A DNA stretch of 64,000 nt from Candidatus Levyibacteriota bacterium (GCA_016182185.1 JACOXU010000001.1:15700-79699), one strand, 5' to 3'; shown: positions 15,322-41,579, numbered from the stretch's first letter. Translations and numbers: made by a program. The notes: generated by a model from the letters alone, not told the origin.

Positions 15322-15393
15322 AGCGGGAGACGGGTATCGCACCCGCGACCTTCTCGTTGGCAACGAGACGTTCTACTGCTGAACTACTCCCGC
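15322..15393 (-). tRNA. tRNA-Gly (anticodon GCC), non-canonical D/T loops
   Basis: Reverse complement GCGGGAGTAGTTCAGCAGTAGAACGTCTCGTTGCCAACGAGAAGGTCGCGGGTGCGATACCCGTCTCCCGCT. The D-loop AGCAGTA has no GG. The T-loop TGCGATA reads UGC where TΨC is expected. Confidence 0.8.
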
Positions 15394-15410
15394 GCGTAAA
15401 TAATTTACTG

Positions 15411-15483
15411 TGCCGAGGGTCAGAGTCGAACTGACATAGCCTGTTCTTCAGACAGGTGCCGTGACCACCTTGGCTACCTCGGC
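15411..15483 (-). tRNA. tRNA-Phe (anticodon GAA)
   Basis: Reverse complement GCCGAGGTAGCCAAGGTGGTCACGGCACCTGTCTGAAGAACAGG...TTCGACT...CCTCGGCA. Confidence 0.9.
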
Positions 15484-15487
15484 TTTG

Positions 15488-15561
15488 TGGACTCCAGAGG
15501 GTTCGAACCTCTGACCTCCTCGGTGTAAACGAGGCGCTCTGACCAGCTGAGCTAGGAGTCC
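15488..15561 (-). tRNA. tRNA-Val (anticodon TAC)
   Basis: Reverse complement GGACTCCTAGCTCAGCTGGTCAGAGCGCCTCGTTTACACCGAGGAGGTCAGAGGTTCGAACCCTCTGGAGTCCA. Confidence 0.9.
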
Positions 15562-15600
15562 AAATAGCTTGCCCTGAGTGAGCAAAGCGAATCGAATGGG

Positions 15601-15687
15601 TGCCGAGGACAGGACTTGAACCTGCACGCCTTTTTTAAGGGCACAAGAACCTCAATCTTGCGTGTATACCAATTTCACCACCTCGGC
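15601..15687 (-). tRNA. tRNA-Leu (anticodon GAG)
   Basis: Reverse complement GCCGAGGTGGTGAAATTGGTATACACGCAAGATTGAGGTTCTTG plus a long variable arm, then GCAGGTTCAAGTCCTGTCCTCGGCA. Confidence 0.85.
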
Positions 15688-15724
15688 TTTTTGGATTATG
15701 ATTATATCAAAATCCTTAAGAATG

Positions 15725-15808
15725 TGCTCTGGGAGAGACTCGAACTCTCACGTTCTTGCGAACACTAGCTTCTGAAGCTAGCCTGTCTGCCAATTTCAGC
15801 ACCAGAGC
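15725..15808 (-). tRNA. tRNA-Leu (anticodon CAG)
   Basis: Reverse complement GCTCTGGTGCTGAAATTGGCAGACAGGCTAGCTTCAGAAGCTAG plus a long variable arm, then GAGAGTTCGAGTCTCTCCCAGAGCA. Confidence 0.85.
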
Positions 15809-17927: not shown

Positions 17928-18539
17928 ATGAAGGATTTTAGTCAACTGGAAAATAAAAAAGTTATAGAAAAAACTATTAAAGCGCTGAGGAAAAATGGAA
18001 TCGAAGCAGAAGTTGTAGAGAATAGTGAGATGGCCAAAAAAAGAATTTATGAACTTATTCCCGAAGGCTCAGAAGTCATGATAATGTCCTCAGTTACTCT
18101 TATTAAGACAGGAATTGCCAAAGAATTAAATGAATCAGGAAGATATGATTCTGTCAAGAAAAAACTCGCCTCAATGAATAGAAAAACTCAAGGCATTGAA
18201 ATGCAAAGAATAGGCGGCGCTCCACAATATGCATTGGGCAGTGTCCATGCAGTAACGCAAGACGGCAGACTTTTGATAGCATCAAACACAGGTAGTCAGT
18301 TAGGAGCATATACTTACGGCTCAGAGCATGTTATTTGGGTTGTAGGAGCACAAAAGATTGTAGAAGATTTAGATGAAGGCATGAAAAGAGTTTATGAATA
18401 TGTTCTTCCCCTTGAAAGTGAAAGGATGAAAAGGCTTTACAATATGCCAAGTAATGTTAGTAAGCTTTTGATATTCAATAAAGAAATAGTTCCCAATAGG
18501 GTCCGTCTTATATTTATCAACGAGAAAATCGGCTACTAA
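17928..18539 (+). CDS. LUD-domain (YkgG/LutC-like, DUF162) protein
   Basis: About 200 aa with a conserved SVHAVTQDGRLLIASNTGSQ...IWVVGAQKIV core. Paralog of 27090-27710. Confidence 0.65.
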   Translation: MKDFSQLENKKVIEKTIKALRKNGIEAEVVENSEMAKKRIYELIPEGSEVMIMSSVTLIKTGIAKELNESGRYDSVKKKLASMNRKTQGIEMQRIGGAPQYALGSVHAVTQDGRLLIASNTGSQLGAYTYGSEHVIWVVGAQKIVEDLDEGMKRVYEYVLPLESERMKRLYNMPSNVSKLLIFNKEIVPNRVRLIFINEKIGY

Positions 18540-20107: not shown

Positions 20108-21007
20108 ATGAATAATACTCCAACAGTAACAGTTAATCAGATGCGAGAAGTTGACAGACTCATGGTTGATGAAATTGGAGTTTCAATACTCATGATGATG
20201 GAAAACGCGTCAAGAAATATTGCGATACTTTCTCGCAAATTGCTTGGAGGAAACGTAAAAAAGAAACATATCGTAGTTCTCTGTGGTAAAGGCAATAACG
20301 GCGGTGATGGGTTAAGTGCTGCTCGGCATTTGATAAATTTTGGGGGAACGGTAACTTGCATACTTTCCGAGCACAAAGAAAATCTAAGAAGTAATGCTCG
20401 TGTGCAATTTAACGTTTTAGAAAACATAGATGCCGCGATCATAGAATTCTCGGATGAACAAAAAGGACTCATTCAAGAAAAGATAAAAAATTCAGATTTG
20501 ATAATTGATGCGCTCCTTGGGTACAACCTGAAAGGCAATCCGGAGGAGCCTATCGCTACGCTTATTCGCTTAGCAAATAAGTCACGAAAGCCAATTCTTG
20601 CTGTTGATATACCTTCTGGTCTTTCAGGAGATGCGGGAGAAGCTTCCGAGCCAACCATAAAAGCTACCGCAACGCTTACTCTTGCACTTCCAAAAGTCGG
20701 CTTGCAGAAAGATATGGCAAAAGAATATGTGGGAGAATTGTATTTAGCTGATCTGTCTGTACCGGCTGTTGTTTATAGAAAACTTGGTATTGATGTCCCA
20801 ATCTTATTTGAATTTGTTGGTCAAACAATACAGGTGATCGGTGAAGTAATGATTGGTATCACAGCCATTATGGTTCATAGACGAGTATGGAAAGAGCATA
20901 AAATTAACCCCCTTGTTTACAAAGAGATGCAGCGAGAGCAAATTATAGGCATTTTGGGAATTGTTTTATTAGTTGCAGGATATTTTATACAAATATTATG
21001 GAATTAA
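20108..21007 (+). CDS. NAD(P)H-hydrate epimerase (YjeF N-terminal domain) with an unusual C-terminal two-TM extension
   Basis: VLCGKGNNGGDGLSAARHL YjeF_N signature. The last ~60 aa are two hydrophobic helices (VIGEVMIGITAIMV; IIGILGIVLLVAGYFIQILW). There is no YjeF_C dehydratase domain. Confidence 0.7.
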   Translation: MNNTPTVTVNQMREVDRLMVDEIGVSILMMMENASRNIAILSRKLLGGNVKKKHIVVLCGKGNNGGDGLSAARHLINFGGTVTCILSEHKENLRSNARVQFNVLENIDAAIIEFSDEQKGLIQEKIKNSDLIIDALLGYNLKGNPEEPIATLIRLANKSRKPILAVDIPSGLSGDAGEASEPTIKATATLTLALPKVGLQKDMAKEYVGELYLADLSVPAVVYRKLGIDVPILFEFVGQTIQVIGEVMIGITAIMVHRRVWKEHKINPLVYKEMQREQIIGILGIVLLVAGYFIQILWN

Positions 21008-21369
21008 TTTTTGTCTATAATGCAGATTCAGGGTTTTTTAATAGCATTAAAGATCTAATTCATAAATCTGTATCACCAAAAACATATGGATGTAATCTTT
21101 GCGGACTCACCTTTAGTGGGGCTTCAATGAAACAAGAATGGAGAGAATTCCTAGATAGTCTTCCGATAAGGGCTACGTTTTTGCATAAAGATGAATTTAC
21201 AAAGCAATACCCAAAATACGCGATGATAACTTATCCAGTTGTATTCAAAAAAGAGAACGGAATACTCAAAGGATTTATTTATACTGATGAGATAAATCAA
21301 CAAAAGACACTTGAAACGCTTCAAAAACTCGTACGAGACAAGATGCAAGCCCACGAGTCTAGGGCTTGA
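20998..21369 (+). CDS. hypothetical protein (123 aa)
   Basis: Contains a GCNLCGLT C-x2-C element; no recognised family. Confidence 0.4.
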   Translation: MELIFVYNADSGFFNSIKDLIHKSVSPKTYGCNLCGLTFSGASMKQEWREFLDSLPIRATFLHKDEFTKQYPKYAMITYPVVFKKENGILKGFIYTDEINQQKTLETLQKLVRDKMQAHESRA

Positions 21370-21892
21370 TAAAACTTTTTTCTCCAGCTCTTATTGCAGC
21401 AGGTAAGATGTTTTCTCCTGGAGTGATAGGACAATCCCATTGGTCATTATAAGAACTGTAGGGATTGTAGGCATAATTAAAATCAATTACTAATTTATCT
21501 CCTTTTTTAGGAATTTGTAACATCCGGCCATTTTTATAAGTTTCTTTACCGGTAGTTTGATCTCTAAACAGTAAGTAATACTGAAACTGTTCCCGCTCTG
21601 GATCTTCAAAAACTATAGCATCTACATTTTGGCCTTCAACATTAAACATAACTTTACCGGCTCTTAAATAGACTTGCTCATCTCCACCCGTAGTTTTAAT
21701 AACAACTTTTTTACCAACATCCGAAATATTCTTATCCAATTCCAGCTCAAAACTTAAACCTGGATTCGGCGGAAAATATTTTAATCCGGTAAAAGTTTCC
21801 TTCTGATCTTCAGTTAAAGGAGACTCAATATTTTCTCTCCAAGCTCTATCCTTCTGTTTTCTAAATTCTAATAGTTTTTCTTTACTGTACAT
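21359..21892 (-). CDS. DUF1684-like protein
   Basis: GLKYFPPNP...DFNYAYNPYS... pattern resembling DUF1684. It is the last gene of the co-directional redox block. Confidence 0.5.
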   Translation of the reverse strand: MYSKEKLLEFRKQKDRAWRENIESPLTEDQKETFTGLKYFPPNPGLSFELELDKNISDVGKKVVIKTTGGDEQVYLRAGKVMFNVEGQNVDAIVFEDPEREQFQYYLLFRDQTTGKETYKNGRMLQIPKKGDKLVIDFNYAYNPYSSYNDQWDCPITPGENILPAAIRAGEKSFIKP

Positions 21893-21895
21893 AAT

Positions 21896-24283
21896 CTATT
21901 TTTTACTCCTTACATTGTGTCCACCGAACTCATGACGTAAAGCCGAGACAACCTGACCGGTATATGAGGGTTTTCCTTGAGATTTTTTTCTAAACTCGAC
22001 TGCCCCCTCAATAATTTCTACTGGTACGTCCATTTCTCTTGCTGTTTCAACAGTCCATTTCCCTTCGCCGCTTTGAGATACTTTTCCAGAACAACATTCT
22101 TGGGTATTTAGATCATCGCCAAACTTGGCATACGCATCTTTAAGCCATCCGACAAGACGAGAAGTAATAACCGAACCGTGATTGTAAAGATCGGCAACGG
22201 AATACAAATCAAGTGAAAAAGGAGACTTTTTAAGAATCTCAAATCCTTCACCAATTGACTGCATCATACCGTACTCGATCCCGTTATGTACCATTTTTAC
22301 GAAATGTCCAGCGCTGGCATTGCCCATATAGCCGTATCCATCTTTAATCGATAAATCTCGGAATAAAGGCTCATGTCTTTCATAAAGTTCTTTTTTACCT
22401 CCAACCATAATACAAGCACCATTGAGCGCACCATCCGGACCACCTGAAACTCCAACGTCCAAGAAATTAATTCCACTTTTGTCTAGGTCTTTTGAGCGAC
22501 GGATAGAGTCTTTATAAGGTGAATTACCACCGTCTATAATAGTGTCTCCTTTTTCAAGAAGAGGTACAAGCTCGTTTAAAACTTCGTCAACTGCCTGGTA
22601 AGATGCCATTAGCCAAATTGTGCGGGGGTTTTTAAGTTTTTCAACCAGTTCTTCCAGAGAATGGGTGCCAAGAATCCCTTCAGACTCATAAACCTTGGTT
22701 ACCTCGTAAGTCCTGTTATAACCGTACACCTTCCATCCTTTTGAAACTAATTGTTTCGCCAGATTTGCCCCCATTTTCCCAAGACCTATAATCCCTATTT
22801 CGTTTATTTTTACCTTTCCTTTTTTGATCATATTTCCCCTCGCGCTTTTATCTAATTCAGGGGCTGGAGTTGTGTCCGGTTTGTATTTCAAAAGCGGAGC
22901 AAGATTTTCCTTCCATGCCTCAATGACAGGGTCTGCAAATTTCCACTGAGCTTCAACTTCATTTTGAGAAATAAAAAGCGATTGATCAGCATGTATAGCG
23001 TGATAAAGAACCTTTGCGTATTCTTCAACATATTGTACTTTGGTTTGCTTTTTGTATAAAAAGAATGAAAAAGTTCTTTCCTCAAGCACTCGTTCAAACC
23101 CCGGTTTTTTAGTCCAGAAATGAATTACTATTTCATCCCTTGGTTCAAGGCGAAAAACTATACGATTTGGTGTATGCTTGCGGATTTCACACAAGTGGCA
23201 CACTTTTGGATGTTTTAATGTTAAGACAATTTCTTTTCGCACCTCTCCCATACGCTTACCTGCTGAAAGTGTTATCGATACACCTTTCCATTTTGGATGA
23301 AGAAGTTCAGTTTTAAGCGCAAAATATGTTTCCGTATTGGAGTTAGGTGTAACGTCTTGAATCTCTTTGTAGCCTTTATATTGCGCTCGGAATGTGTTCT
23401 TTGTTAAAATTTCCCTTCTCCACGGCAAAAGAGCCTCAAGGATTTTTGCTCTGGTTTTTCTGATGCCTGTTTCTTCTTCGTTTGATGGATATTCCATAGT
23501 GAGCGCAGCAAGCATTGAGAGAAGATGATTTTGTCCCACATCCCGCAAAGCTCCAACCTGATCATAAAAGCTTCCTCTATCTTCAACGCCTATTTTTTCA
23601 TGAAGCTGCAGATCAATGCTGTCGATGGTTGAATTATCCCAAATGTTCTCAAAGAGATTATTGGAAAATCGAAAATTTTCTATTCCCTGAACTATTTCTT
23701 TAAAAAGGTAGTGATCAATGCGGTAAATTTGCTCTTCCTTAAAATATGAAGAGAGAAGTGTCTGAAGCTTTCTTGCCGTTGCAAGATTGGTACCAAACGG
23801 TTTTTCAATAAGAATTCTGCTCCAGCCGAGTTTTCCTCCACAAGGGATGTTTAATTTCACTGCTGCAAGGTTTTTGAAAATCAAATCATAATTTATTGGC
23901 GGAACTGCCAGATAAAAAAGCTTATTAGCACAAATTCCCCATAAATTTTCTGTTTCGCTAATTTTGTTGACTAGAGCCTGATATGCTTTTTCATCTTCAA
24001 AAGTGCCATTCTGATAAGAAAAGGTCACAAAAAATTTCGAGAATTTCTCGCTTGTTACGTTTTCCCCGCTGCGTTTTTTAACCGAATCGAAAACATAGTC
24101 TTTAAATTCTTGAGCAGAAAAATCTCTTCTTGAAAAGCCTATAACGGAAATGTTATCGGGCAAAAGGTTCTGCTCGAAGAGGTGCCAGAGAGAAGGAATA
24201 ATTTTTTTTGCCGCCAGGTCTCCCGTTACGCCAAATATTACAAGAATTGTCGGTATTTCTTTTGATATTTCCTTTGATTCCAT
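21896..24283 (-). CDS. fused glucose-6-phosphate 1-dehydrogenase / 6-phosphogluconate dehydrogenase (decarboxylating)
   Basis: N-terminal half: G6PD motifs GVTGDLAAKKIIPSL (dinucleotide-binding) and RIDHYLFKE (G6PD signature RIDHYLGKE). C-terminal ~300 aa: 6PGDH motifs IGIIGLGKMGANLA, GGNSPYKDSIRR, GVSGGPDGALNG, GHFVKMVHNGIEYG, GEGKWT. Single uninterrupted ORF of 808 aa; the start is probably the Met at MESKEIS. Confidence 0.85.
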   Translation of the reverse strand: MESKEISKEIPTILVIFGVTGDLAAKKIIPSLWHLFEQNLLPDNISVIGFSRRDFSAQEFKDYVFDSVKKRSGENVTSEKFSKFFVTFSYQNGTFEDEKAYQALVNKISETENLWGICANKLFYLAVPPINYDLIFKNLAAVKLNIPCGGKLGWSRILIEKPFGTNLATARKLQTLLSSYFKEEQIYRIDHYLFKEIVQGIENFRFSNNLFENIWDNSTIDSIDLQLHEKIGVEDRGSFYDQVGALRDVGQNHLLSMLAALTMEYPSNEEETGIRKTRAKILEALLPWRREILTKNTFRAQYKGYKEIQDVTPNSNTETYFALKTELLHPKWKGVSITLSAGKRMGEVRKEIVLTLKHPKVCHLCEIRKHTPNRIVFRLEPRDEIVIHFWTKKPGFERVLEERTFSFFLYKKQTKVQYVEEYAKVLYHAIHADQSLFISQNEVEAQWKFADPVIEAWKENLAPLLKYKPDTTPAPELDKSARGNMIKKGKVKINEIGIIGLGKMGANLAKQLVSKGWKVYGYNRTYEVTKVYESEGILGTHSLEELVEKLKNPRTIWLMASYQAVDEVLNELVPLLEKGDTIIDGGNSPYKDSIRRSKDLDKSGINFLDVGVSGGPDGALNGACIMVGGKKELYERHEPLFRDLSIKDGYGYMGNASAGHFVKMVHNGIEYGMMQSIGEGFEILKKSPFSLDLYSVADLYNHGSVITSRLVGWLKDAYAKFGDDLNTQECCSGKVSQSGEGKWTVETAREMDVPVEIIEGAVEFRKKSQGKPSYTGQVVSALRHEFGGHNVRSKK

Positions 24284-24288
24284 AATTA

Positions 24289-25638
24289 TTATTCGATTGC
24301 AAAAAATGCCCTTTGTAACCATTCTGGTAAAGCTGGGTGAATATAAACAGAATTTGTAATTGCTTTTACAGTTCCATTTGCCTTCATGGCAACAATTACT
24401 TCATGAATTAGGGTAGATGCTTCATGACCTACGATATGAGCTCCAAGAATTTTTTCTCCATTCTTATCAGTTAGAACTTTTGCGAGTCCATTTTCTTGTA
24501 ATGCTCCACCCATACCGGTATCTTTGAGCTCTGCTCTCCCTACTTTATAAGCTGTACCTTCTTTTTTAAGCTCTTGCTCTGTTTTACCAACTCCACCAAC
24601 CTGAGGAGATGAAAAAACCGCATGACCTATTGCAAAGGGATTAAATGGTACTTTTTTATCAGTAAAAGCGTTTCTAATTGAAAATCCAACTTGGTCATTG
24701 GCGGTATGTCGAAACGGCAAGATACCAAGTATATCCCCAAACGCCCAGATACCATCAACATTTGTCTCAAGGTACTCATTAACCTTAATATACCCATTGT
24801 CATTCACCTCAACTCCTGTTGTCTTAACATCTAAGATGTCGGTATTGGGAACTCTGCCAGTAACAACCAGCAATTGATCACTCTCAAGTTTTCTTTCACT
24901 GTCTTTTAAGGTAATAATGAAATTGCCGTTTTGGTAGGAAACCGACTCTGCCTGTGTATTAAAGAGAATTTCATATTTTTTAGAAAACTTCTTGGTGAAC
25001 CATTGGGCTATTTCTTCATCTTCATCACTCAACATGAGATTTCCCCTGACCAAAATTGTAATTTTAGTTCCTAAAGCTCCATAAAAATGTGCAAGCTCTG
25101 CTGCTATATAACCGCCGCCTATAATTATTAAATGTTTTGGTTGTTTCTCAAGCCTTAATGCTTTTGTACTATCTAGAAATGGTGTATTTTTCAAACCCGG
25201 AATTGGGGGTATGGAAGGCCTGGTGCCTCCGACAATAAATACTTTATCAGCCTCAATCTGACCATCTCCTACCTGCATTTGTTTTGGACCAATAAACTTA
25301 CCGCGCATTTTATAGAGGATAGGGTTTCCGTTTTCTCTGACAGACTTTTCAATACCGGCCGAATCAGTATCTACCACCTCAGAGACTCGTTTTACGATCG
25401 ATGCAAAATCTATGCTTTCTATCTTGCTTTTAATCCCAAATTTTCCGCTATTTTTAATAGCTTCAGCAACATCCGATGAGTGGATCAACATCTTTGAGGG
25501 TATGCAACCTCGATTTAGACACGTTCCACCCAGCGGGCCTTCTTCGACTATTGCAACAGACATTTCTTTTTCTGCAGCAAATGATGCTACTTCGAGTCCG
25601 GCTCCTGATCCCACAACTAAAACATCAAACTTTTTCAT
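24289..25638 (-). CDS. class I flavoprotein pyridine nucleotide-disulfide oxidoreductase (glutathione reductase / Lpd-like)
   Basis: FAD-binding GSGAGL; redox-active GGTCLNRGCIPSK; a second Rossmann GGGYIAAEL with a VRG element; a C-terminal dimerisation domain with HPALPE. Confidence 0.85.
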   Translation of the reverse strand: MKKFDVLVVGSGAGLEVASFAAEKEMSVAIVEEGPLGGTCLNRGCIPSKMLIHSSDVAEAIKNSGKFGIKSKIESIDFASIVKRVSEVVDTDSAGIEKSVRENGNPILYKMRGKFIGPKQMQVGDGQIEADKVFIVGGTRPSIPPIPGLKNTPFLDSTKALRLEKQPKHLIIIGGGYIAAELAHFYGALGTKITILVRGNLMLSDEDEEIAQWFTKKFSKKYEILFNTQAESVSYQNGNFIITLKDSERKLESDQLLVVTGRVPNTDILDVKTTGVEVNDNGYIKVNEYLETNVDGIWAFGDILGILPFRHTANDQVGFSIRNAFTDKKVPFNPFAIGHAVFSSPQVGGVGKTEQELKKEGTAYKVGRAELKDTGMGGALQENGLAKVLTDKNGEKILGAHIVGHEASTLIHEVIVAMKANGTVKAITNSVYIHPALPEWLQRAFFAIE

Positions 25639-25675
25639 ATTACCTCTTCTAGTTTATCAACAAATTGCTACTTTT

Positions 25676-25876
25676 TTAACTGCTCGTACTGTGTTGTTGT
25701 CCATGTGTTGCTAAATCTTGTGGAGATTTTGCTTTCATGCCGCATTTAGAGCATATTATCGAATGTTCTTCTTGCTCATCTTTATTACTGTGCATTTGTT
25801 TTGCGTGGGAATCCATTTCATCTTGAGAATCAAACTGACCTCCGCACATAGGACATTTTAATTTATTGCTATCCAT
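25676..25876 (-). CDS. small protein with two C2H2-type zinc-finger-like motifs (66 aa)
   Basis: CPMCGGQFDSQDEMDSHAKQMH and CSKCGMKAKSPQDLATHGQQH both fit C-x2-C-x12-H-x3/4-H. A strong GGAGGTGA RBS lies 8 nt upstream. Confidence 0.6.
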   Translation of the reverse strand: MDSNKLKCPMCGGQFDSQDEMDSHAKQMHSNKDEQEEHSIICSKCGMKAKSPQDLATHGQQHSTSS

Positions 25877-25917
25877 TTTACTTCACCTCCTTTTATGTTC
25901 GTAAATTGTTAGAATGC

Positions 25918-26166
25918 TTATAAACCTAGCACTTTATCTAAAGCTTCTTTATTAAATCCTAAAATCGCAACTTCCTTTCCATCGTCTTTTACAATATGTG
26001 TGCAGGGTACTCCCATAGATTTGCAAATATGCATTGCCTCTGCTGCCTTATCTGGATTATAGTCAAGAACTATATCCTCAAAAGAAATATTCTTCTCTTT
26101 TAAGTAGCTCTTCAGCATATGACAATAGGGACAAGCTGTTGTCGAGTAAACTTTTATTTTAGCCAT
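25918..26166 (-). CDS. glutaredoxin (CPYC active site)
   Basis: KVYSTTACPYCHMLKSYL is a classic Grx CPYC motif and fold; about 82 aa starting from the MAKIKVY ATG. The ORF-track start at 26175 is a GTG. Confidence 0.8.
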   Translation of the reverse strand: MAKIKVYSTTACPYCHMLKSYLKEKNISFEDIVLDYNPDKAAEAMHICKSMGVPCTHIVKDDGKEVAILGFNKEALDKVLGL

Positions 26167-26461
26167 TTCTATCACCTGCCTTCATTTTATCCTTATGCAT
26201 TATTATTAGATTTTTGTTTGCGTCAAGCGCCTTTTTCAGCTCTTCATTTGAAGGCTCAACAAGAACCTCGCCATTAGGAAACAAAATAGTCGGAATCGAC
26301 TGCATTCCGCGATTTATCTCTTCAACTTCTGCTGCTGCACTTGGATCTTTATCTATATTTATGTATTCGTACATAACACCTCTTTGGTCAAGAAAGAATC
26401 TAGATCTATGGCAATCGGCGCACCAGTCAGCTCCATAAAATTTTATATGCTTCGAACTCAT
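26159..26461 (-). CDS. glutaredoxin-like / thioredoxin-fold protein (CADC active site)
   Basis: IKFYGADWCADCHRSRFFL is a Cx2C motif in the thioredoxin-fold position, with a later ...SIPTILFPNG cis-Pro-type region. Confidence 0.7.
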   Translation of the reverse strand: MSSKHIKFYGADWCADCHRSRFFLDQRGVMYEYINIDKDPSAAAEVEEINRGMQSIPTILFPNGEVLVEPSNEELKKALDANKNLIIMHKDKMKAGDRNG

Positions 26462-26493
26462 ATCAGTTTATATATGTAATAAGATAACATCGA

Positions 26494-26646
26494 TTAATTG
26501 TGATTGTGATCTTGTTCACGGTTTTCATTTTTTTCTTTTTTATGACTTGGGTCAGTACAGTTTTTATCTGTACATTTCTCAATCACACCGATCGCCTTTC
26601 CCATTCTGCACATCGTACAATTATCGTGTTTTCCATGTCCCATCAT
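26494..26646 (-). CDS. unannotated 50-aa Cys/His-rich small protein
   Basis: Not in the ORF track because it is under 60 aa. A GGAGGTG RBS 7 nt upstream, then ATG ATG; translation MMGHGKHDNCTMCRMGKAIGVIEKCTDKNCTDPSHKKEKNENREQDHNHN (4 Cys, 5 His). It fills the gap between the CADC-Grx gene and the 117-aa membrane protein gene on the same strand. Confidence 0.45.
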   Translation of the reverse strand: MMGHGKHDNCTMCRMGKAIGVIEKCTDKNCTDPSHKKEKNENREQDHNHN

Positions 26647-26721
26647 ATAATTTCACCTCCTTATTTGTGGTTTAATCATACAAATAATTTTATCTTTGTT
26701 CTGTCGCCCGGACGACATGTT

Positions 26722-27075
26722 TTATTTATTCTCTTTAATTATCTTACCGAGTCTAACAGGCATCATAATTAATGCAATCAAAATTCCAAAAAGTAGAACA
26801 AATATTCCGGTTAATATGTTACCAACTCCGACAAGTTTAAGTCTTAAAAGTTCCGATGGGTAATTTTGTATTTGTACTAACTGGGAGTTGAGTTCTGATC
26901 CTGTTTCTGCCGCGTCCCTGATTTCTTTACTTTGAATAAAGTATTCGGACTGAAGCACATGAAATTTTGCCTCCTCAACAGTTACTCTCTGATGCATTTG
27001 TATCCCAATTCCTGCAAATATAATACCTGCAATCATAAACACTGCCATCATTCCCATCATCATCGTCTTCATCAT
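26722..27075 (-). CDS. small membrane protein with a Met-rich N-terminus (117 aa)
   Basis: N-terminus MMKTMMMGMMAVFMIAGIIF; two TM helices (N- and C-terminal); GGAGGTGA RBS. Confidence 0.5.
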   Translation of the reverse strand: MMKTMMMGMMAVFMIAGIIFAGIGIQMHQRVTVEEAKFHVLQSEYFIQSKEIRDAAETGSELNSQLVQIQNYPSELLRLKLVGVGNILTGIFVLLFGILIALIMMPVRLGKIIKENK

Positions 27076-27089
27076 TTTTATCTCACCTC

Positions 27090-27710
27090 CTAAAATCCTA
27101 AGTTCTCTTTAATCAAAACTATCGTTATTCTTCCGGGTATCATTTCTTTGTTGATTATAAGGATTTTATTAACCCCACTTCGCATACCATAAGCTTTTTG
27201 TGCCCTCGCATCTTCGAGAGGATAGGAATATTCGTAAATTCTTCTTAAACCTTCTTGAAGGTTTTTAACAATTTTTTGCGTTCCTACTATAAAAATAACT
27301 TTTTCTGCGGAATAAACTTCTGTTGAAAGCTGGCTGCCTGTTGCCGATGCAATCAAAAGCTGTCCTTCCTCTGTTATAGCATGAACAGATCCCACTACAA
27401 ACTCAGGAGCGGCTCCAATCTTTGCCATCTCACGGCTTTGCGTGCTTCTATCCATTTTCATGAGTTTTTGCCTCACGGAATCATATTTCCCAGATTCGTT
27501 TATTTCCTTTGCAAGGCTTATAATTTCCCCAGTCCGGGACGTGGCGGTGAAAACTTCTGCTCCTGTTGGTAGCATTCCTAGAACTTCCTCTTTTGCCTCT
27601 TTGCCATTTTTAACAACGAGTGTTTTTATTCCGTTTGCTTCAAGTGCTTTTACGGCTTTTGCGATTCTCTGGTTATCGGCTAATTTATTAAAATTTTGAT
27701 TTGATTTCAT
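27090..27710 (-). CDS. LUD-domain (YkgG/LutC-like) protein, paralog
   Basis: SVHAITEEGQLLIASATGSQ...IFIVGTQKIV. Clearly homologous to 17928-18539. Confidence 0.65.
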   Translation of the reverse strand: MKSNQNFNKLADNQRIAKAVKALEANGIKTLVVKNGKEAKEEVLGMLPTGAEVFTATSRTGEIISLAKEINESGKYDSVRQKLMKMDRSTQSREMAKIGAAPEFVVGSVHAITEEGQLLIASATGSQLSTEVYSAEKVIFIVGTQKIVKNLQEGLRRIYEYSYPLEDARAQKAYGMRSGVNKILIINKEMIPGRITIVLIKENLGF

Positions 27711-27800
27711 AAGATTATTCTTTCCTTAATCAAAGTATAGTCGAGTTTTTAATTTGATTCTGTCGTTTGTAAGACAAAATAGTCTTTTTTTCAAATACAG

Positions 27801-29462
27801 TTAATTTGAGTAAAGTTCGGTATCCGGGTGGAACGCGGCCCAGGCAAACCAGAATAACCTGATGGGAATTATTTCTTCTTGGGTTTCAAGATTGATAGTT
27901 TTAATTTGTCCTGAATCAAGTTTTTCGAGTCGTAGGTTTATATCACCAATTTGATCCTCAATTATTTTTCGGTTGTCAAACACGCTTTCAGGATATGCTT
28001 TTGATAATCCATCCAGCTCAATCCCATAAACGACAGTCTTGATCTGAAGACTTTTATTTAATCCCTTTACTCCAAACAGTAGTTGGTCATCCTGCTCATA
28101 AGTGCCATAAGGATATTGGTCGTAATCCCTGCTGTGGTCTGTTTCCCGTGATAGAACTTGAGTATTAGGATGTTTTCGTTTCCATTCGCCCCATGTGGTT
28201 GTTACAATTGGTACCTGTTTTAGCTTTTCATTTCGACGGGCCGCTTCACCAACAATAGCCTCCCCTGTTATTTGTTGCCAGAGATTCCCTTCGTATCTGT
28301 CATACATAACAAGATCCGAATTATGCAGTTTTCCGGATACACCAAATTCCGTGATAACTCCGTCAACTTTTCTTTCAAATGCAAGAGCGGAACCGCAAAG
28401 CGGACAAAAAGTAATCGCAACTGGATCACCTGCAGCAATATCATTTACAATCTCATGCCAATTTAGGATTCGTTGAGGATAGGCTCGTTGTACCCCCATA
28501 TAATCAATTGCAAATACAACGTCATCATCCCGTAACCAACTAGCCTGCGTTGCTGATTCAAATTTAGGTTTATCAATCGATGGAATACAATCTTTTCCAC
28601 CAAAACAGCCTTGGAGCAAATCGCTTTTATCCACCTTAGCACCTGTGAAATCATTGGCGAGGGATACATCACGAACTACTGTTTCACCAGGTTTAGCTTT
28701 TTGCGTCTTTTTTCCACTTAAAGCCCTAAGTTGCTTGTCAATATTCACGCTTTTTTCAAACGTAGTTGCAAGCTGTGTCCATGAAGCAGGTAAATTTGCA
28801 AGCGTCCATGCCTGCAGTATTCTATCTGCTCCGGTCCATAAAAATAAAGCTGTGCCCAATATAATAATCCCAAAGATTTGTCTAATTTTTTGGTTGTTTG
28901 CTTTAACAAAACCAAGTCTTGCGGAAGCCGCGCGTCCGCCTTTTGCGATAAAATAGAGAGGAACGGCTGTTCCTAAAGCATAAGAAAATACTATTAAAAC
29001 AGATCCGAATGAGAGTGAATTTACTGCTGCGAGTGTTGCAACAGCCGCAACAACTGGACCAATACAGGGAGTCCACACAACTCCAAGACTTACACCTGTA
29101 ACAAGTCCCCCTCCGAATCCGCTACCTTGGTTTTGCACTGGACGGACTTGCCAGAAACGCTCAATTAGTATCAACGCCTTTTCCCAAATAATAGGAAAGA
29201 CCATGCTTAAACCAAAAATGACTAACAGTATTACAGCAATATTTCGAATTGTATCTGCAGGAATTCCAAAAACTTTTACAACTGTTGCAAGAAGAAGTGC
29301 GGCAATCGTAAAACTCACAACAAGCCCTATTATAACACCTCTTATTCGCCATATTTTTCCTTCAATTCCGCTTGCTAAAATAATGGGCAGAATGGGAAGA
29401 ACACATGGTGAAAAAACAGTTAAAACTCCTGACACAAATGCAATAGGTAAAAGCAAAAACAT
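27801..29462 (-). CDS. CcdA/DsbD-type thiol-disulfide transporter fused to a C-terminal DUF3179-like domain
   Basis: N-terminal ~240 aa: polytopic membrane domain with VFSPCVLPILP (CcdA/DsbD beta signature) and a second Cys (VWTPCIGP). C-terminal ~300 aa: ITFCPLCGS...FGVSGKL..DLVMYDR..GNLWQQ pattern typical of DUF3179. Confidence 0.75.
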   Translation of the reverse strand: MFLLLPIAFVSGVLTVFSPCVLPILPIILASGIEGKIWRIRGVIIGLVVSFTIAALLLATVVKVFGIPADTIRNIAVILLVIFGLSMVFPIIWEKALILIERFWQVRPVQNQGSGFGGGLVTGVSLGVVWTPCIGPVVAAVATLAAVNSLSFGSVLIVFSYALGTAVPLYFIAKGGRAASARLGFVKANNQKIRQIFGIIILGTALFLWTGADRILQAWTLANLPASWTQLATTFEKSVNIDKQLRALSGKKTQKAKPGETVVRDVSLANDFTGAKVDKSDLLQGCFGGKDCIPSIDKPKFESATQASWLRDDDVVFAIDYMGVQRAYPQRILNWHEIVNDIAAGDPVAITFCPLCGSALAFERKVDGVITEFGVSGKLHNSDLVMYDRYEGNLWQQITGEAIVGEAARRNEKLKQVPIVTTTWGEWKRKHPNTQVLSRETDHSRDYDQYPYGTYEQDDQLLFGVKGLNKSLQIKTVVYGIELDGLSKAYPESVFDNRKIIEDQIGDINLRLEKLDSGQIKTINLETQEEIIPIRLFWFAWAAFHPDTELYSN

Positions 29463-29463
29463 A

Positions 29464-29925
29464 TTAGTTTATTTGTGCAACTAAAGTATCAAAATCTCCG
29501 CCAATCCATCGTTTTATTTCGTTTCCCTGACTGTCAAGATAAACCATTGTATGCTGTTGTGCTATACCATACTTTTTCTTATTGAAGCTGTCGTGGTCGT
29601 AGTCAATCTTAAGTACTGTTAGGTTTTCGGGAAGCGATGCGCTTTTCTCTCTTAATTCTTTGTCTAAAGCAGAACATGTATTACACCATGCAGTTGCTGC
29701 AAAAAACAATACGGTATTTCCGTTTCCATATGCTTGCGTTAAGGTTCCTTCGGAATAATCAAAATAATGTGGGGAAATGGGTTGAAAATCAGCAAGTACT
29801 CTTTGCTGTGGGACTGTTTTATTTACAAAAAAATTATTAAAAAGAACTCCCGCAAAAATTACCCCCAGTACTATTATGGCAGTTGTAATTCCATTTAATT
29901 TCGTATTTTTTATTTTTAAAGTCAT
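29464..29925 (-). CDS. membrane-anchored thioredoxin-like protein (TlpA/ResA-like), WCNTC
   Basis: N-terminal TM anchor; Trx fold with active site WCNTC. Confidence 0.8.
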   Translation of the reverse strand: MTLKIKNTKLNGITTAIIVLGVIFAGVLFNNFFVNKTVPQQRVLADFQPISPHYFDYSEGTLTQAYGNGNTVLFFAATAWCNTCSALDKELREKSASLPENLTVLKIDYDHDSFNKKKYGIAQQHTMVYLDSQGNEIKRWIGGDFDTLVAQIN

Positions 29926-30365
29926 ATTAGTTGTTGTTTTATTGTTTCAATGCCGCCACCTATCCAATTATGTACTTCGTTCCCTTCGCTATCGACTTGT
30001 ACAAGTGTATGCTGTTGAACAATATTATATTTTTGTTTTAGCTCTTTTTCGGTATCGTAGTTTACCTGTAAAATAGTCACATCGTCAGGCAATTCACCAC
30101 TTCTTTCTTTAAGTTCCTCATCAAGGACTTTGCATGTTGGACACCATGAAGCCCAAAAATAGAGAACGGGGCGACCATTTGTCTTTCCAGCGGCAAGGTT
30201 CTCTTCTGAGTATTTAAGATAATGTGGGGCGATTTCTCCAGAATTGTCTTGAGTAGCTGTTATACTTCTTGTAGTATCTTTGGTCTTAGATTGCGTAAGA
30301 AAAACACCTCCTAAAATCACAATAAGAAGTATTATCACAATAGCAATTATTTTCCCGATCTTCAT
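29922..30365 (-). CDS. membrane-anchored thioredoxin-like protein (TlpA/ResA-like), WCPTC
   Basis: N-terminal TM anchor; active site WCPTC. Paralog of 29464-29925. Confidence 0.8.
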   Translation of the reverse strand: MKIGKIIAIVIILLIVILGGVFLTQSKTKDTTRSITATQDNSGEIAPHYLKYSEENLAAGKTNGRPVLYFWASWCPTCKVLDEELKERSGELPDDVTILQVNYDTEKELKQKYNIVQQHTLVQVDSEGNEVHNWIGGGIETIKQQLI

Positions 30366-30445
30366 ACTTTAAGCATACAGTAAACACTCTTCGGTATACC
30401 ACTCATAAAATTCTCAAAATTCTAGAATACTTCTGAAAGGGTTTG

Positions 30446-30847
30446 TTAATTAAGATTCGTAAGCAATGCTTCTACCCCTTTACCTCCGCTATTCCATCTC
30501 GTAATTTCCTTTCCCTGACTATCAACTTGAATAAATGTATCCTGCATGGTGATAGCATACTTTTTCTTCATGGCAGAATCATTATCATAGTCGACTTTAA
30601 GAATAGTTACATCTCCCGGAACTTCATCAAAATTTGCCTTAAAATTCCTGTCTGCTGCCTGACATGAAGGACACCAGGCAAGCGCCGCAAAGAAAAGAAC
30701 AGCACAACCATTGTTTGCCGTTGCTTTGGAAAGAGAATTTGATGAATAGTCAACATAGCGAGTTGCTATCGCAGAATCATTGGAGCCCATTGCAGAATCG
30801 TCTTCCATCATTTCCCCAGCTTCCATAAATGATCCGTCAGTCCACAT
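30446..30847 (-). CDS. thioredoxin-like protein (TlpA-like paralog), WCPSC, no N-terminal anchor
   Basis: Trx domain homologous to the two upstream paralogs (…VLFFAALAWCPSC…) but with an acidic 25-aa N-terminus instead of a TM helix. There is no in-frame upstream start before a stop at 30908. Confidence 0.6.
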   Translation of the reverse strand: MWTDGSFMEAGEMMEDDSAMGSNDSAIATRYVDYSSNSLSKATANNGCAVLFFAALAWCPSCQAADRNFKANFDEVPGDVTILKVDYDNDSAMKKKYAITMQDTFIQVDSQGKEITRWNSGGKGVEALLTNLN

Positions 30848-30888
30848 AGATTGTCCTTCTTTTAGGGTAAATGATGACCCATCTGTTT

Positions 30889-31164
30889 TTAATACTTCTC
30901 TGTTATCTTAACTACAGTGCCGTCATTTAGCGTGGCATCCTTCGTCATTGGTCTTAACTCATGATTTTTTTCAATCATCATCTTTCCGTCCTTTAAGATG
31001 TATCCAGTACCCATCATACTGTCCTCATTCTTCTCTTCCGTTACTCCTTGTACTGATGTTGTGTCTTGGGATAAAGGATCGTTTTTAGACTGCCCATTCA
31101 GAAGGAAAAAACCTCCGCTTAAAACTATCGCCGCTATTATTCCTAAGATGAGATACGTTTTCAT
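30889..31164 (-). CDS. small secreted/membrane-anchored protein (91 aa)
   Basis: Signal/TM helix MKTYLILGIIAAIVLSGGFF; GGAGGTGA RBS; Met-rich segment MMGTGYILKDGKMMIEK. It is the first gene downstream of the Crp/Fnr regulator. Confidence 0.5.
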   Translation of the reverse strand: MKTYLILGIIAAIVLSGGFFLLNGQSKNDPLSQDTTSVQGVTEEKNEDSMMGTGYILKDGKMMIEKNHELRPMTKDATLNDGTVVKITEKY

Positions 31165-31394
31165 TTATTCACCTCCATTCCCAAATTTAAGGAAATGTCG
31201 CTTTTAGTAATTTTCGCAACTTCTGTAGTTATATCTAATAACTGCATCAAGGTAATAACTTCTTTTCTATGTTTTTCGGTTTGAAAAATAGTTTTGTTCT
31301 TATCCTTTTTCTCATCATCGCAACAAGTACGTATACCTTTCATGTGACAAGAATATAACTCAATAAACAATAAATCTGTCGCGTAGAAGACAAT

Positions 31395-32057
31395 TTAAGA
31401 GGACAGTTGCTCTAGGTGTGAGGAATTAAACTGGAGCATTTTTTTTGAACGCTTAATATGCCCCTTTTTCTCTAGTTGGTTAATAAGGGTTGTTACAGTT
31501 TGTCGTGAGATGCCAAGCATCTGGGCAAGTTCTTCATGTGTAAATTTATCTGATATCTCCATATAATCTTCAGATTTTGGCTTACCTAGGCTCAAAAGTA
31601 ACTTAACTAATCTTTGAAATGCATTATCGGCGGCCACTGAGGACATTCGCTTCTCAACTGAAAGAAGTCTATTAAAAAGCTGCTTCATTAATTTTTCAGA
31701 TAGGTCCGGATACTGAGAGATTAGTGTAAAAAAATTGTTTTTTTCAAGAGAGCACACATATGAATCAACCGTTGCCTCCACAAATATCTCAGATGAACCC
31801 TCAGAGCCTAAATCTCCAAATAAACTTCCCGGACGCAGCCTTTCTATTATCGTCTTTTTACCTGATGGGGTGAGCTGAAACAATTCCACTTGGCCAGTTT
31901 TTACAAGAAATACTTTATCTCTGTCTCCAGGTTCAAAAATTACCTCTCTTTTACTATATTCCTTCATAGCAAACAGAGACTCTATTTTATGAAGTTTATC
32001 TTTCGCTAAGTCTTTAAACAAATCGAGCTGTTGAATGTACCAAAGCTTCTTGTTCAT
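31395..32057 (-). CDS. Crp/Fnr-family transcriptional regulator
   Basis: N-terminal cNMP-binding-like beta-roll; C-terminal HTH (HEELAQMLGISRQTVTTLINQLEKKGHI). Confidence 0.85.
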   Translation of the reverse strand: MNKKLWYIQQLDLFKDLAKDKLHKIESLFAMKEYSKREVIFEPGDRDKVFLVKTGQVELFQLTPSGKKTIIERLRPGSLFGDLGSEGSSEIFVEATVDSYVCSLEKNNFFTLISQYPDLSEKLMKQLFNRLLSVEKRMSSVAADNAFQRLVKLLLSLGKPKSEDYMEISDKFTHEELAQMLGISRQTVTTLINQLEKKGHIKRSKKMLQFNSSHLEQLSS

Positions 32058-32098
32058 ATACCCATTCTATCAAATAAACATGCATATTTGGAATCACT

Positions 32099-32126
32099 AA
32101 AAAGCCCCTCCGTAAAAGAAGGGGCT
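32099..32126 (-). terminator. rho-independent terminator after the GT2 gene
   Basis: Hairpin AGCCCCT-CCGTAAAAGA-AGGGGCT flanked by an A-run (5') and a T-run (3'), so it can act on either strand. It sits between the GT2 gene end and the Crp/Fnr promoter. Confidence 0.5.
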
Positions 32127-39066: not shown

Positions 39067-39129
39067 ATTGTCTTAATTTATGCTCGACAAGGACAACATG
39101 GCCCCATAATTTCTCACCCCCTTTAGCAT

Positions 39130-40602: not shown

Positions 40603-40604
40603 AT

Positions 40605-41532: not shown

Positions 41533-41542
41533 ATCTATACAA

Positions 41543-41579
41543 ATGATAGGAATTTGTTTTACTTTTGTCAATGACAAAA
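41543..41579 (-). promoter_or_regulatory. promoter with perfect 8-1-8 palindromic operator (TTTTGTCA-A-TGACAAAA) overlapping -35 TTGACA; -10 TATCAT
   Basis: Minus strand: TTGACA (plus 41566-41571), a 17-nt spacer, then TATCAT (plus 41543-41548), about 10 nt before the ArsR ATG. The palindrome spans 41563-41579. Confidence 0.5.

Follow-up and report, generated by a model that had tools for sequence, protein, structure and literature searches.

We analysed a stretch of 64,000 nucleotides (nt) from Candidatus Levyibacteriota bacterium (GCA_016182185.1, JACOXU010000001.1:15700-79699), hereafter the window, and report that a block of minus-strand genes at 21359-32057 is best explained as a thiol-redox stress island, probably brought into expression by a single Crp-family activator acting at three promoters of class-II type. 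We place the probability of this reading at about 0.6. The island is real and conserved, and it is less complete and less singular than the self-contained relay of electrons from NADPH to the cell surface that a preliminary description of the same DNA, made from the sequence alone, had proposed.

On the reading that we favour, the regulator, encoded at the head of the block, would bind the palindrome TGTC-N8-GACA about 41.5 bp upstream of three transcription starts. The first module would act in the envelope and comprises a small conserved open reading frame (CC-ORF), a DUF6799-thioredoxin (Trx) protein, two membrane-anchored thioredoxins and a CcdA-DUF3179 fusion. It would work like a split DsbD: the two membrane cysteines of CcdA would pass reducing equivalents outward, the anchored thioredoxins would take them from CcdA and hold the invariant CPLC of the extracytoplasmic DUF3179 domain reduced, and DUF3179 would serve as a terminal reductase or repair enzyme. 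The second module would consist of a LUD-domain protein and a Met-rich membrane protein. In the third, cytoplasmic module a Zwf-Gnd fusion would regenerate NAD(P)H from glucose-6-phosphate, and a flavoenzyme resembling mycothione reductase and Lpd, two glutaredoxin-like proteins and small Cys/His zinc proteins would restore cytoplasmic thiols. The envelope and cytoplasmic halves would be co-induced and draw on a common NADPH pool.

Layout and conservation of the block

Between 21359 and 32057 the minus strand carries an unbroken run of open reading frames (ORFs), and every credible ORF in this interval lies on that strand (Table 1). The preliminary description had counted about twenty co-directional genes; the run stands as described, but the count comes down to 15 itemised ORFs plus one conserved ORF of 60 amino acids (aa) at 31161-31343. 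The intergenic gaps are indeed short, all between -34 and 90 nt with the one exception of 230 nt at 31165-31394; this stretch had been taken for a gap, but an operator, a -10 box and the small ORF are located in it. The strong ribosome-binding site said to be shared by several genes was found as the box GGAGGTGA before four of them (DUF6799, the Met-rich transmembrane (TM) protein, the 50-aa Cys/His protein CysHis50 and the zinc finger). Every family label was supported by hidden Markov model (HMM) searches, a finer label of the thioredoxins being taken up below, and the families bear out the thiol-redox and NADPH theme of the gene set. The organism had been supposed to have a reduced genome; it is a Candidate Phyla Radiation (CPR) bacterium from groundwater with a tiny genome, and Zwf-Gnd read from its second ATG is 100% identical to a 795-aa protein of a Candidatus Levybacteria metagenome-assembled genome, where it is encoded on a contig of 617 kb.

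A terminator-like hairpin marks the upstream boundary of the island. No intrinsic terminators were found in the minus-strand intergenic regions within the block, and an Rfam scan of the whole 64-kb window returned tRNAs only, with no RNA element in the block. We found no paper on this gene arrangement, in agreement with the earlier remark that it is not a described operon, and literature searches on CcdA in CPR and on Zwf-Gnd fusions found nothing relevant either. Look-ups by exact sequence for the contig context of the window's CcdA-DUF3179 and of protein P0121 gave no record.

The clustering of these genes is not due to chance; their order recurs in many related contigs. In metagenome contigs anchored on the disulfide reductase, the gene order of the window (Crp, (DUF6799-)Trx, Trx, CcdA-DUF3179, LUD, CysHis50, two glutaredoxins, zinc finger, reductase, Zwf-Gnd, DUF1684 and a convergent CxxC gene) recurs in about 25 related Microgenomates contigs at 78-88% identity. 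Among loci with reductase orthologs of at least 75% identity, and where the flanks allow it, the gene directly upstream of the reductase is that of the zinc finger in 17 of 22, while a glutaredoxin is found upstream in 12 of 16, CcdA-DUF3179 upstream in 7 of 7 and Zwf-Gnd or DUF1684 downstream in 12 of 15. A survey of one-genome-per-species contigs anchored on CcdA-DUF3179 found full-length fusions in Davies-, Gottesman- and Roizman-bacteria, and in Paceibacteria fusions that are more distant; each is directly preceded by one or two genes for anchored thioredoxins, and these in four loci by a Crp gene. Orthologs of the regulator were seen directly upstream of Trx/CcdA in seven loci.

The neighbourhood comparison across CPR genomes that had been suggested as a check thus finds the genes co-localised. 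The "fixed arrangement" of the preliminary description is kept only within a Microgenomates clade, and the accessory genes vary (MerA, extra flavoprotein reductases, TrxA/TrxB, YjeF_N and HAD). Nor are the two fusion proteins the hallmark they had seemed: Zwf-Gnd is general across Patescibacteria lineages (120 of the 120 matches listed are full-length fusions), and CcdA-DUF3179 is already present in databases under the mere name "DUF3179 domain-containing (seleno)protein", the fusion making up 113 of 120 clusters (90% identity) among the matches listed. Judged by gene order, the island is best described as a feature that a single Microgenomates clade has conserved and that is surrounded by a varying shell of accessory genes, not as a fixed operon. 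Inside the clusters of two loci (L002, 11692-13782; L081, 7011-9044) lies an extra flavoprotein reductase of 677-696 aa (GGDCTHxGC) with a C-terminal membrane domain, preceded in L002 by an operator.

Predicted operators and promoters

The 64-kb window contains four copies of the 16-bp palindrome TGTC-N8-GACA, mostly followed by GA, where 0.45 would be expected; four were attained in none of 100 shuffles. All four copies lie within the block and three of them (O1 to O3) are intergenic, each followed at the same distance by a -10 box (Table 1). The position of O1 is kept in eight loci, and the -10 box of its promoter P1 is an invariant TATnnT in the seven loci aligned; the O2-type arrangement recurs in one relative (L093), and sites ahead of CysHis50 occur in four others (L001, L090, L091 and L105). 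Across 517 kb of CPR sequence we found 26 exact palindromes, and for 16 of them TAnnnT follows at a distance of exactly 21 nt, towards the next gene, the background frequency of TAnnnT being 0.022 per position. The palindrome also precedes members that are relocated in relatives, namely the 123-aa CxxC gene (L001, L098), YjeF_N/Zwf (L081) and a glutaredoxin (L081). When one mismatch was permitted, no convincing operator appeared in the window outside the block. The palindromes were also considered as terminators, and this was rejected: their stems measure 4-5 bp and no T-run follows them on the coding strand.

With transcription starting about 7 nt after the -10 box, the centre of the palindrome would lie about 41.5 bp upstream of the start. 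In CRP and FNR, a site near -41.5 that overlaps the -35 region is the geometry of a class-II activator. This geometry is present at three sites in the window and at 16 of 26 overall, the starts and the binding of the regulator being predicted. We predict three co-regulated units (envelope, LUD/TM and cytoplasmic) in addition to the regulator's own gene, and the genes of the block appear to stand under one common regulator. Transcription as a single operon, which the preliminary description implied, is in consequence unlikely, given three predicted internal promoter-operator units.

The regulator itself combines a cNMP-binding-like sensor with a C-terminal Crp-type helix-turn-helix, as expected of a Crp/Fnr transcription factor. 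All equivalog models score it far below cut-off and its PDB matches are generic Crp-family proteins (E ~1e-15). It is not an FNR proper: C102 is its only Cys, the Cys cluster of FNR is missing, and it scores 36.9 against a cut-off of 228 with the Fnr model NF008365. The TGTC...GACA half-site of the palindrome agrees with the sites of CooA (TGTCGGCNNGCCGACA; PMC545781) and of Cmr from M. tuberculosis (TGTCA-N6-YGACA; PMC4705688). CooA of R. rubrum and Desulfovibrio and Cmr share with the block a 16-bp palindrome with these half-sites, and the geometry predicted for the block is that of a class-II activator. Unlike CooA, however, the block's regulator gives no evidence of haem ligands and is distant in sequence (E ~1e-12 to CooA structures), and the target genes differ from those of both CooA and Cmr. 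We infer the pairing of this regulator with the operators, activation as its mode of action, and the inducing signal. In the stretch upstream of the regulator gene (32058-32090) a TAGAAT box lies 7 nt before the ATG without a Shine-Dalgarno sequence, so that its mRNA may be leaderless.

It could be argued that the block is no more than historical adjacency, with housekeeping redox and pentose-phosphate genes lying together in a small, gene-dense genome without common function or control. CPR genomes are compact and co-directional runs in them are common, the Zwf-Gnd fusion is found throughout Patescibacteria, usually outside such a context, and one locus (L101) has a reductase homolog (63% identical) with none of the partners nearby. 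Against this, the partners stay linked through rearrangements (L088, and L084/85/100, where YjeF_N and an HAD hydrolase are drawn in), the palindrome is specific to the block, keeps a fixed spacing to the -10 box and also stands before relocated members in relatives, and independent fusions tie DUF3179 to both CcdA and Trx. We consider mere adjacency highly improbable.

The CcdA-DUF3179 fusion and the envelope module

Central to the envelope module is the fusion of CcdA to DUF3179. Its N-terminal part (DsbD_TM, 54.0 bits against a cut-off of 27.1, residues 3-209) has six TM helices with a conserved Cys in TM1 and in TM4, as is characteristic of CcdA, and its C-terminal part matches DUF3179 (PF11376) at 298.8 bits against 27 (E 6e-89), with CPLC and NWHEIVND present. 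Among 54 CcdA-DUF3179 orthologs six Cys are invariant, including Cys20 and Cys133 of CcdA. The loops following TM1, TM3 and TM5 are rich in Lys/Arg and the N-terminus is uncharged; by the positive-inside rule these loops would place the domain after TM6 outside the cell. Stand-alone DUF3179 members bear signal peptides.

A library-wide HMMER search found DUF3179 in 8,957 clusters at 50% identity. In 81 distant members C353-P-L-C356 and N-W-H336-E-I-V-N-D are invariant, and a second pair, C286/C292, is present in only 16, largely CPR members. The family has been described as a selenoprotein family with UxxC/T forms (PMC9312934), which suggests that the first Cys of CPLC is the redox nucleophile. 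A Trx-fold WCxxC domain is fused at either end in about 23 of the best 150 DUF3179 representatives, five of these fusions being confirmed by Pfam as AhpC-TSA/Redoxin, and one CPR representative is an anchored-Trx-DUF3179 fusion. Because DUF3179 is fused to CcdA here and to Trx-fold domains elsewhere, and because Trx genes adjoin CcdA, it is most likely a client of the reducing path from CcdA to Trx; a split-DsbD chain from CcdA through anchored Trx to the CPLC of DUF3179 would be the parsimonious reading of these sequences. A PDB sequence search with the DUF3179 domain returned nothing informative, and the literature on the family yielded nothing beyond listings.

H336 lies 17 residues before CPLC, which resembles the ligand spacing of Rieske proteins; no Rieske sequence signal was found in DUF3179. 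An Fe-S domain folded in advance at the C-terminus of a polytopic membrane protein is unlikely, and we regard the spacing as a lead, which could point to a metal site of the Cys2His kind or else to a CxxC loop under strain. In one Daviesbacteria contig (L006, 9701-11722; P0023) the CcdA-DUF3179 ORF continues into an ArsR-type helix-turn-helix (663-673 aa), either as a real three-domain fusion or through a lost stop codon. Beyond the five mer-operon loci taken up below, stand-alone DUF3179 genes were noted in L023 (Nitrospina) and L024 (Sideroxydans); in other taxa such genes directly adjoin zwf/gnd, and in several Gammaproteobacteria loci DUF3179 stands beside an ECF sigma / zf-HC2 anti-sigma pair.

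The three thioredoxins encoded upstream of the fusion all pass the Thioredoxin model PF00085 (27.5-46.7 bits against 23.5). They had been called TlpA-like, but with TlpA/ResA-type models they fall short of the cut-offs (AhpC-TSA 19-26 against 26; Redoxin 19.5-23.6 against 26.6), while Thioredoxin_8 matches the WCPTC protein only, at 26.4 against 27, and gives no match with the other two. Their weak NCBIfam matches are to the C-terminal (gamma) region of DsbD. All three had also been described as membrane-anchored; their active-site motifs are present and the WCPTC and WCNTC proteins do have an anchor, whereas the WCPSC protein, unlike these two paralogs, has none as encoded, because a frameshift cuts off the half that bears the TM helix.

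The halves of this split gene lie at 30889-31164 (DUF6799, 33 bits) and 30446-30847 (Thioredoxin, 32 bits). The former had been listed as a small secreted protein in its own right, yet a single ORF of 240-244 aa encodes both DUF6799 and the thioredoxin with WCPSC in L001 and L094. In the window the thioredoxin frame runs upstream past its ATG as homologous sequence, and insertion of 1 nt anywhere in 30886-30906 gives an ORF of 239 aa that aligns colinearly with the protein of L094 at 60% identity. The 1-nt deletion within 30886-30906 may have arisen in the assembly or may be a true mutation; an ATG of its own and a GAAGGA box are retained by the downstream half. We also considered the TM-less WCPSC thioredoxin as a cytoplasmic donor to CcdA and rejected it, the missing anchor being an artefact of the frameshift.

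The small ORF that precedes these genes has no Pfam match. It has relatives of 55-60 aa in six loci (L001, L004, L081, L084, L093 and L094), between the first operator and the thioredoxin genes, and its first 11 codons are kept in seven loci with several differences at third codon positions. The predicted P1 start coincides with its ATG, so that its mRNA looks leaderless. The ORF might encode a small Cys-Cys protein, or it might act as a regulatory leader.

From where CcdA would receive its electrons is the point on which the preliminary description and our reading part. The former joined all components into one line, from the NADPH of Zwf-Gnd through the GR/Lpd-type reductase and the two glutaredoxins to CcdA, and on to anchored Trx and DUF3179, without thioredoxin or TrxB. 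Part of this stands: the components are adjacent and apparently co-regulated, the block in the window lacks TrxA and TrxB, the glutaredoxin-like proteins have no obvious partners of a glutathione system, and the glutaredoxins always accompany the reductase. The documented donor to DsbD and CcdA, however, is cytoplasmic thioredoxin (PMC4460558). In close relatives a canonical TrxA (WCGPC/WCAPC, 47-55% identical to E. coli TrxA) follows directly after CcdA-DUF3179 (L001, L094) or stands just before LUD (L096), and one cluster ends in TrxA and TrxB (L088); the search for these genes spanned the 64-kb window, and both may lie elsewhere in the genome. The Trx context of CcdA is accordingly one of anchored Trx genes upstream in the window and of canonical TrxA alongside in relatives. 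To the best of our knowledge, there is no precedent for electron transfer from a glutaredoxin to CcdA or DsbD, and we know of no GR/Lpd/Mtr-type enzyme that reduces a glutaredoxin-fold protein directly. The unbroken line seems to us unlikely. With electrons presumed to flow outward, CcdA is most likely reduced directly, on the cytoplasmic side, by a canonical thioredoxin whose gene lies elsewhere in the genome, not by the glutaredoxins.

The cytoplasmic module, known systems and neighbouring genes

The flavoprotein of the cytoplasmic module is a Group-1 disulfide reductase as read from its sequence, with a CxxxxC centre (GGTCLNRGCIPSK) and the His-Glu dyad HPALPE. It scores below the Lpd equivalogs (NF004946, 479 against 634; TIGR01350, 353 against 409), below mycothione reductase (Mtr; NF005884, 406 against 501) and below GR (NF004776, 294 against 480), and its nearest solved structures are mycothione reductases (8qck, E 1e-79; 8qcj, E 9e-78), followed by Lpd. 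MerA was tried as an identity for it and rejected: the protein ends in ...LQRAFFAIE, without the C-terminal Cys pair, and scores 327 against 454 with TIGR02053. The best NCBIfam model of the CADC glutaredoxin is mycoredoxin (TIGR02200, 76.3, below the cut-off of 89.5), and the CPYC protein reaches 68.3 with the YruB model TIGR02196, also below cut-off (88.55); its start is probably the ATG at 26166. CysHis50 is well conserved, residues 1-35 being 73-94% identical in at least 10 loci. The motifs of the zinc-finger protein are of eukaryote type (C-x2-C-x12-H-x3-4-H), and its gene is nearly always directly upstream of that of the disulfide reductase.

There is a likeness here to the mycothiol system of Actinobacteria (Mtr and Mrx1), in that the best solved relatives of the reductase are Mtr and the best model of the CADC glutaredoxin is mycoredoxin; unlike that system, both proteins fall below the family cut-offs and no mycothiol biosynthesis genes were seen. 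We know of no low-molecular-weight thiol for CPR bacteria. A bolder proposal, which we hold to be less likely than not, would make DUF3179 a new class of extracytoplasmic Cys/Sec oxidoreductase with a Rieske-like core, fed through CcdA and anchored Trx. A redox regulon dedicated to this end and governed by a Crp-family protein would, in Microgenomates, have DUF3179 as its output, and its cytoplasmic arm (the mycothione-reductase-like flavoenzyme, the mycoredoxin-like glutaredoxins and the C2H2 zinc protein) would form a thioredoxin-independent reducing system, possibly based on a low-molecular-weight thiol and undescribed in CPR.

Both halves of Zwf-Gnd score above their equivalog cut-offs (zwf, TIGR00871, 439.8 against 400.6, residues 25-485; gnd_rel, TIGR00872, 357.2 against 297.2, residues 509-807). 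The likely start is the ATG at 24283, giving 795 aa, and the enzyme should yield two NAD(P)H per glucose-6-phosphate. Its preference for NADP, which we presume, is hinted at solely by the motifs SRR and YNRT. The LUD protein, which is in the cluster in four relatives (L088, L093, L094, L096), found no informative relative in a PDB search. LUD and 6-phosphogluconolactonase presumably belong to the same fold clan, and that LUD might substitute for that enzyme is speculation. A second, stand-alone LUD gene (17928-18539, plus strand, 85 bits) lies about 9 kb from that of the block, with PEBP-family, MFS transporter and Nudix-like genes nearby. In L094 a protein of similar architecture occupies the position of the Met-rich gene. 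The PDB search with DUF1684, the product of the last gene, returned only "uncharacterized protein" structures from structural genomics.

It may also be that the island serves in defence against soft metals (Hg, Cu, Cd) or metalloids, with DUF3179 and the Cys/His/Met-rich proteins binding or trafficking thiophilic metals, CcdA and Trx keeping their ligand Cys reduced, and the NADPH and reductase genes covering the cost in thiols. Stand-alone DUF3179 genes are found in mer operons beside MerA, MerP and MerR in five Betaproteobacteria loci (L021, L022, L042, L050 and L075), a MerA ortholog ending in KLSCCI lies inside the cluster of the Daviesbacteria locus L006, ArsR-type genes flank the cluster or are fused to it in L006 and L088, and the window has an ArsR...MerA operon of its own some 6 kb off. 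The block is also rich in Cys/His/Met mini-proteins, and a model of DUF3179 has a Rieske-like sub-domain in which H336 and CPLC stand at Rieske ligand spacing. Yet the block's reductase lacks the C-terminal Cys pair of MerA and retains the His-Glu dyad of disulfide reductases, the selenoprotein forms of DUF3179 with UxxT speak for a catalytic nucleophile more than for a pair of chelating residues, and its repeated fusion to reductase domains of Trx fold is a pattern typical of redox enzymes. Moreover, the regulator is of Crp type, not MerR, ArsR or CsoR, and no metal transporter is encoded in the block. We therefore regard metal defence as the island's purpose as distinctly unlikely. Since the responses to thiol-reactive metals and to oxidants often overlap, either could be the trigger of the thiol-redox island.

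Several observations weigh against our preferred reading of a thiol-redox island under a Crp-family activator. The reductase lies under every NCBIfam equivalog cut-off, so its substrate is not fixed by family, and no role is assigned to six products of the block, namely LUD, the Met-rich TM protein, CysHis50, the zinc finger, DUF1684 and the CC-ORF. The regulator has one Cys only and no Fe-S Cys cluster. The fourth palindrome (30649-30664) lies inside coding sequence and has no -10 box, and the start sites are derived solely from the distance at which the -10 box follows the palindrome. The 64-kb window encodes neither a canonical TrxA nor a TrxB, and the first thioredoxin gene is frameshifted in this assembly. 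Finally, the MerA/ArsR genes in the clusters of relatives and the presence of DUF3179 in mer operons fit a soft-metal trigger equally well.

By analogy, the system would be a split DsbD/CcdA reducing path placed within a stress regulon of the OxyR/SoxRS or OxsR kind, each part being of a known kind. In common with known DsbD/CcdA pathways (E. coli DsbD alpha-beta-gamma, B. subtilis TrxA-CcdA-ResA/StoA, and ScsB), it has the six-TM CcdA core with Cys in TM1 and TM4 and membrane-anchored Trx-fold partners encoded beside CcdA, with canonical TrxA adjacent in the block's relatives; DsbD and ScsB, too, carry an extra extracytoplasmic redox domain fused to the transporter. The fused domain here is DUF3179, in contrast to the Ig-like alpha or Trx-like gamma domain of DsbD. 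The block also lacks the accompanying cytochrome c maturation genes, and its predicted regulon adds NADPH-generating and cytoplasmic disulfide-reductase genes under Crp-family control. In Neisseria, PilB is a periplasmic methionine sulfoxide reductase (Trx-MsrA-MsrB) that is fed by DsbD. It is likewise an extracytoplasmic Cys enzyme fused to a Trx-fold domain and dependent on DsbD/CcdA, and many DUF3179 proteins follow the same fusion logic, although DUF3179 bears no relation to MsrA/MsrB in sequence or fold.

The E. coli OxyR/SoxRS regulons include grxA, gor, trxC, dsbG and zwf. In Haloferax the OxsR regulon contains DUF1684, Trx, Grx, TrxR and a homolog of CoA-disulfide reductase (PMC9426492). 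With these regulons the block shares NADPH supply (zwf), a flavoprotein disulfide reductase, Grx/Trx and envelope thiol repair, and with that of Haloferax it also shares DUF1684. It differs from them in that its genes are physically clustered, and its predicted regulator is none of OxyR, SoxR, Spx and TrmB but a Crp-family activator with a site of the CooA/Cmr type; in the block's DUF1684 the Cx7C motif that has been proposed is without its first Cys.

What appears to be new, no paper having been found on any of these points, is the coupling of CcdA to DUF3179 together with the family-wide Trx-DUF3179 fusions, the predicted operator/promoter architecture in a CPR lineage, and the fact that genes for NADPH generation, for a mycothione-reductase-like enzyme and for envelope reduction are physically joined. 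No new principle of electron transfer is involved. In CPR bacteria metabolism is minimal and hardly any regulation has been characterised, and the island provides a concrete predicted regulon of one regulator, a 16-bp operator and three promoters. It also gives a hypothesis for the large and unstudied DUF3179 family, namely that its members are clients of the CcdA-to-Trx path, backed by independent fusions to both partners. CPR episymbionts appear to invest in regulated, NADPH-backed maintenance of surface thiols, which bears on survival of oxidants or thiophilic metals and perhaps on the upkeep of surface structures.

Table 1. Features of the block and its immediate surroundings, in the direction of transcription of the block.
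Feature	Position	Strand	Evidence or description
Terminator-like hairpin	32105..32123	-	CCCTTCTTTTACGGAGGGG then CTTTTT; between upstream GT2 (glycosyltransferase) gene and regulator gene
Crp/Fnr-family regulator, 220 aa	31395..32057	-	cNMP_binding 59.2 bits; HTH_Crp_2 51.5 bits
Operator O1	31377..31392		TGTCTTCTACGCGACA on coding strand; starts 2 nt past regulator stop codon
-10 box of predicted promoter P1, TATTCT	31350..31355	-	21 nt after O1; small-ORF ATG 6 nt later
Conserved small ORF (CC-ORF), 60 aa, Lys-rich	31161..31343	-	MKGIRTCCDDEKK...; N-terminus MKGIxVCCDGE kept in relatives
DUF6799-Trx gene split by frameshift	30446..31164	-	TM anchor, DUF6799, linker, Trx fold with WCPSC
Anchored Trx-fold protein, WCPTC, TM 6-24	29922..30365	-	Thioredoxin 46.7 bits; weak match to DsbD residues 423-553
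Anchored Trx-fold protein, WCNTC, TM 16-34	29464..29925	-	Pfam/NCBIfam searches and TM prediction
CcdA (six TM helices, Cys20, Cys133) with extracytoplasmic DUF3179 (GCFGGKDC, CPLC)	27801..29462	-	DsbD_TM and DUF3179 HMMs
Operator O2, between CcdA-DUF3179 and LUD	27761..27776		TGTCTTACAAACGACA on coding strand
Predicted -10 box, TATACT	27734-27739		21 nt downstream of O2; for LUD and Met-rich TM gene
LUD-domain protein, 206 aa	27090..27710	-	LUD_dom 59 bits
Met-rich protein, two TM helices, 117 aa	26722..27075	-	No Pfam match
Operator O3, before CysHis50 gene	26702..26717		TGTCGTCCGGGCGACA on coding strand
Predicted -10 box, TATGAT	26675-26680		21 nt downstream of O3; for cytoplasmic module
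CysHis50, Cys/His-rich, 50 aa	26494..26646	-	Four Cys (C-x2-C ... C-x4-C); no Pfam match
Glutaredoxin-fold protein, WCADC	26159..26461	-	Glutaredoxin 45.4 bits against 22.9
Glutaredoxin-like protein, CPYC, nearest YruB family	25918..26175	-	Glutaredoxin 44.4 bits against 22.9
66-aa protein, two classical C2H2 zinc fingers	25676..25876	-	zf-C2H2_4 32.8 bits against 27
Group-1 flavoprotein disulfide reductase, CLNRGC, HPALPE	24289..25638	-	Pyr_redox_2 198.5 bits; Pyr_redox_dim 91.1 bits
Zwf-Gnd fusion	21896..24322	-	G6PD_N/C and NAD_binding_2/6PGD
DUF1684 protein, last gene of block	21359..21892	-	129 bits; S-x7-C against C-x7-C in other members
Convergent 123-aa protein, CNLC	20998..21369	+	Kept next to cluster in relatives
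YjeF_N (NAD(P)HX epimerase), C-terminal TM helix	20090..21007	+	HMM searches

Beyond the end of the block lies the convergent gene for a 123-aa CNLC protein, which in L001 and L098 has an operator and a -10 box 49 nt upstream and is probably a member of the same regulon in relatives; no exact operator site for it was found in the window, and a PDB search with the protein returned nothing informative. The next gene, YjeF_N, overlaps it with its 3' end, and its annotated start overlaps a divergent HAD gene; YjeF_N lies inside the cluster in L084, L085 and L100 and is operator-linked in L081.

Elsewhere in the window, a separate mer-like operon on the minus strand (37693-41577) encodes a regulator of the ArsR family (41209-41577), a secreted protein of 203 aa in which CCCKC and HHH occur (40605-41216), a 490-aa protein without a family (39130-40602) and a core MerA ending in ...KLSCCV (37693-39066), a 75%-identical ortholog of which is found in the thiol-redox cluster of L006. 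Two small paralogous ORFs at 43474-43725 (MHYVYVLKSLKDNSLYIGYT...) and 44634-44921 (...YYVYILYSLKDNKFYIGFT...), which by eye look like GIY-YIG-type proteins, each stand beside a tRNA gene (43316-43388 and 44481-44552, respectively). The window has 15 tRNA genes, including a cluster at 15322-15808.

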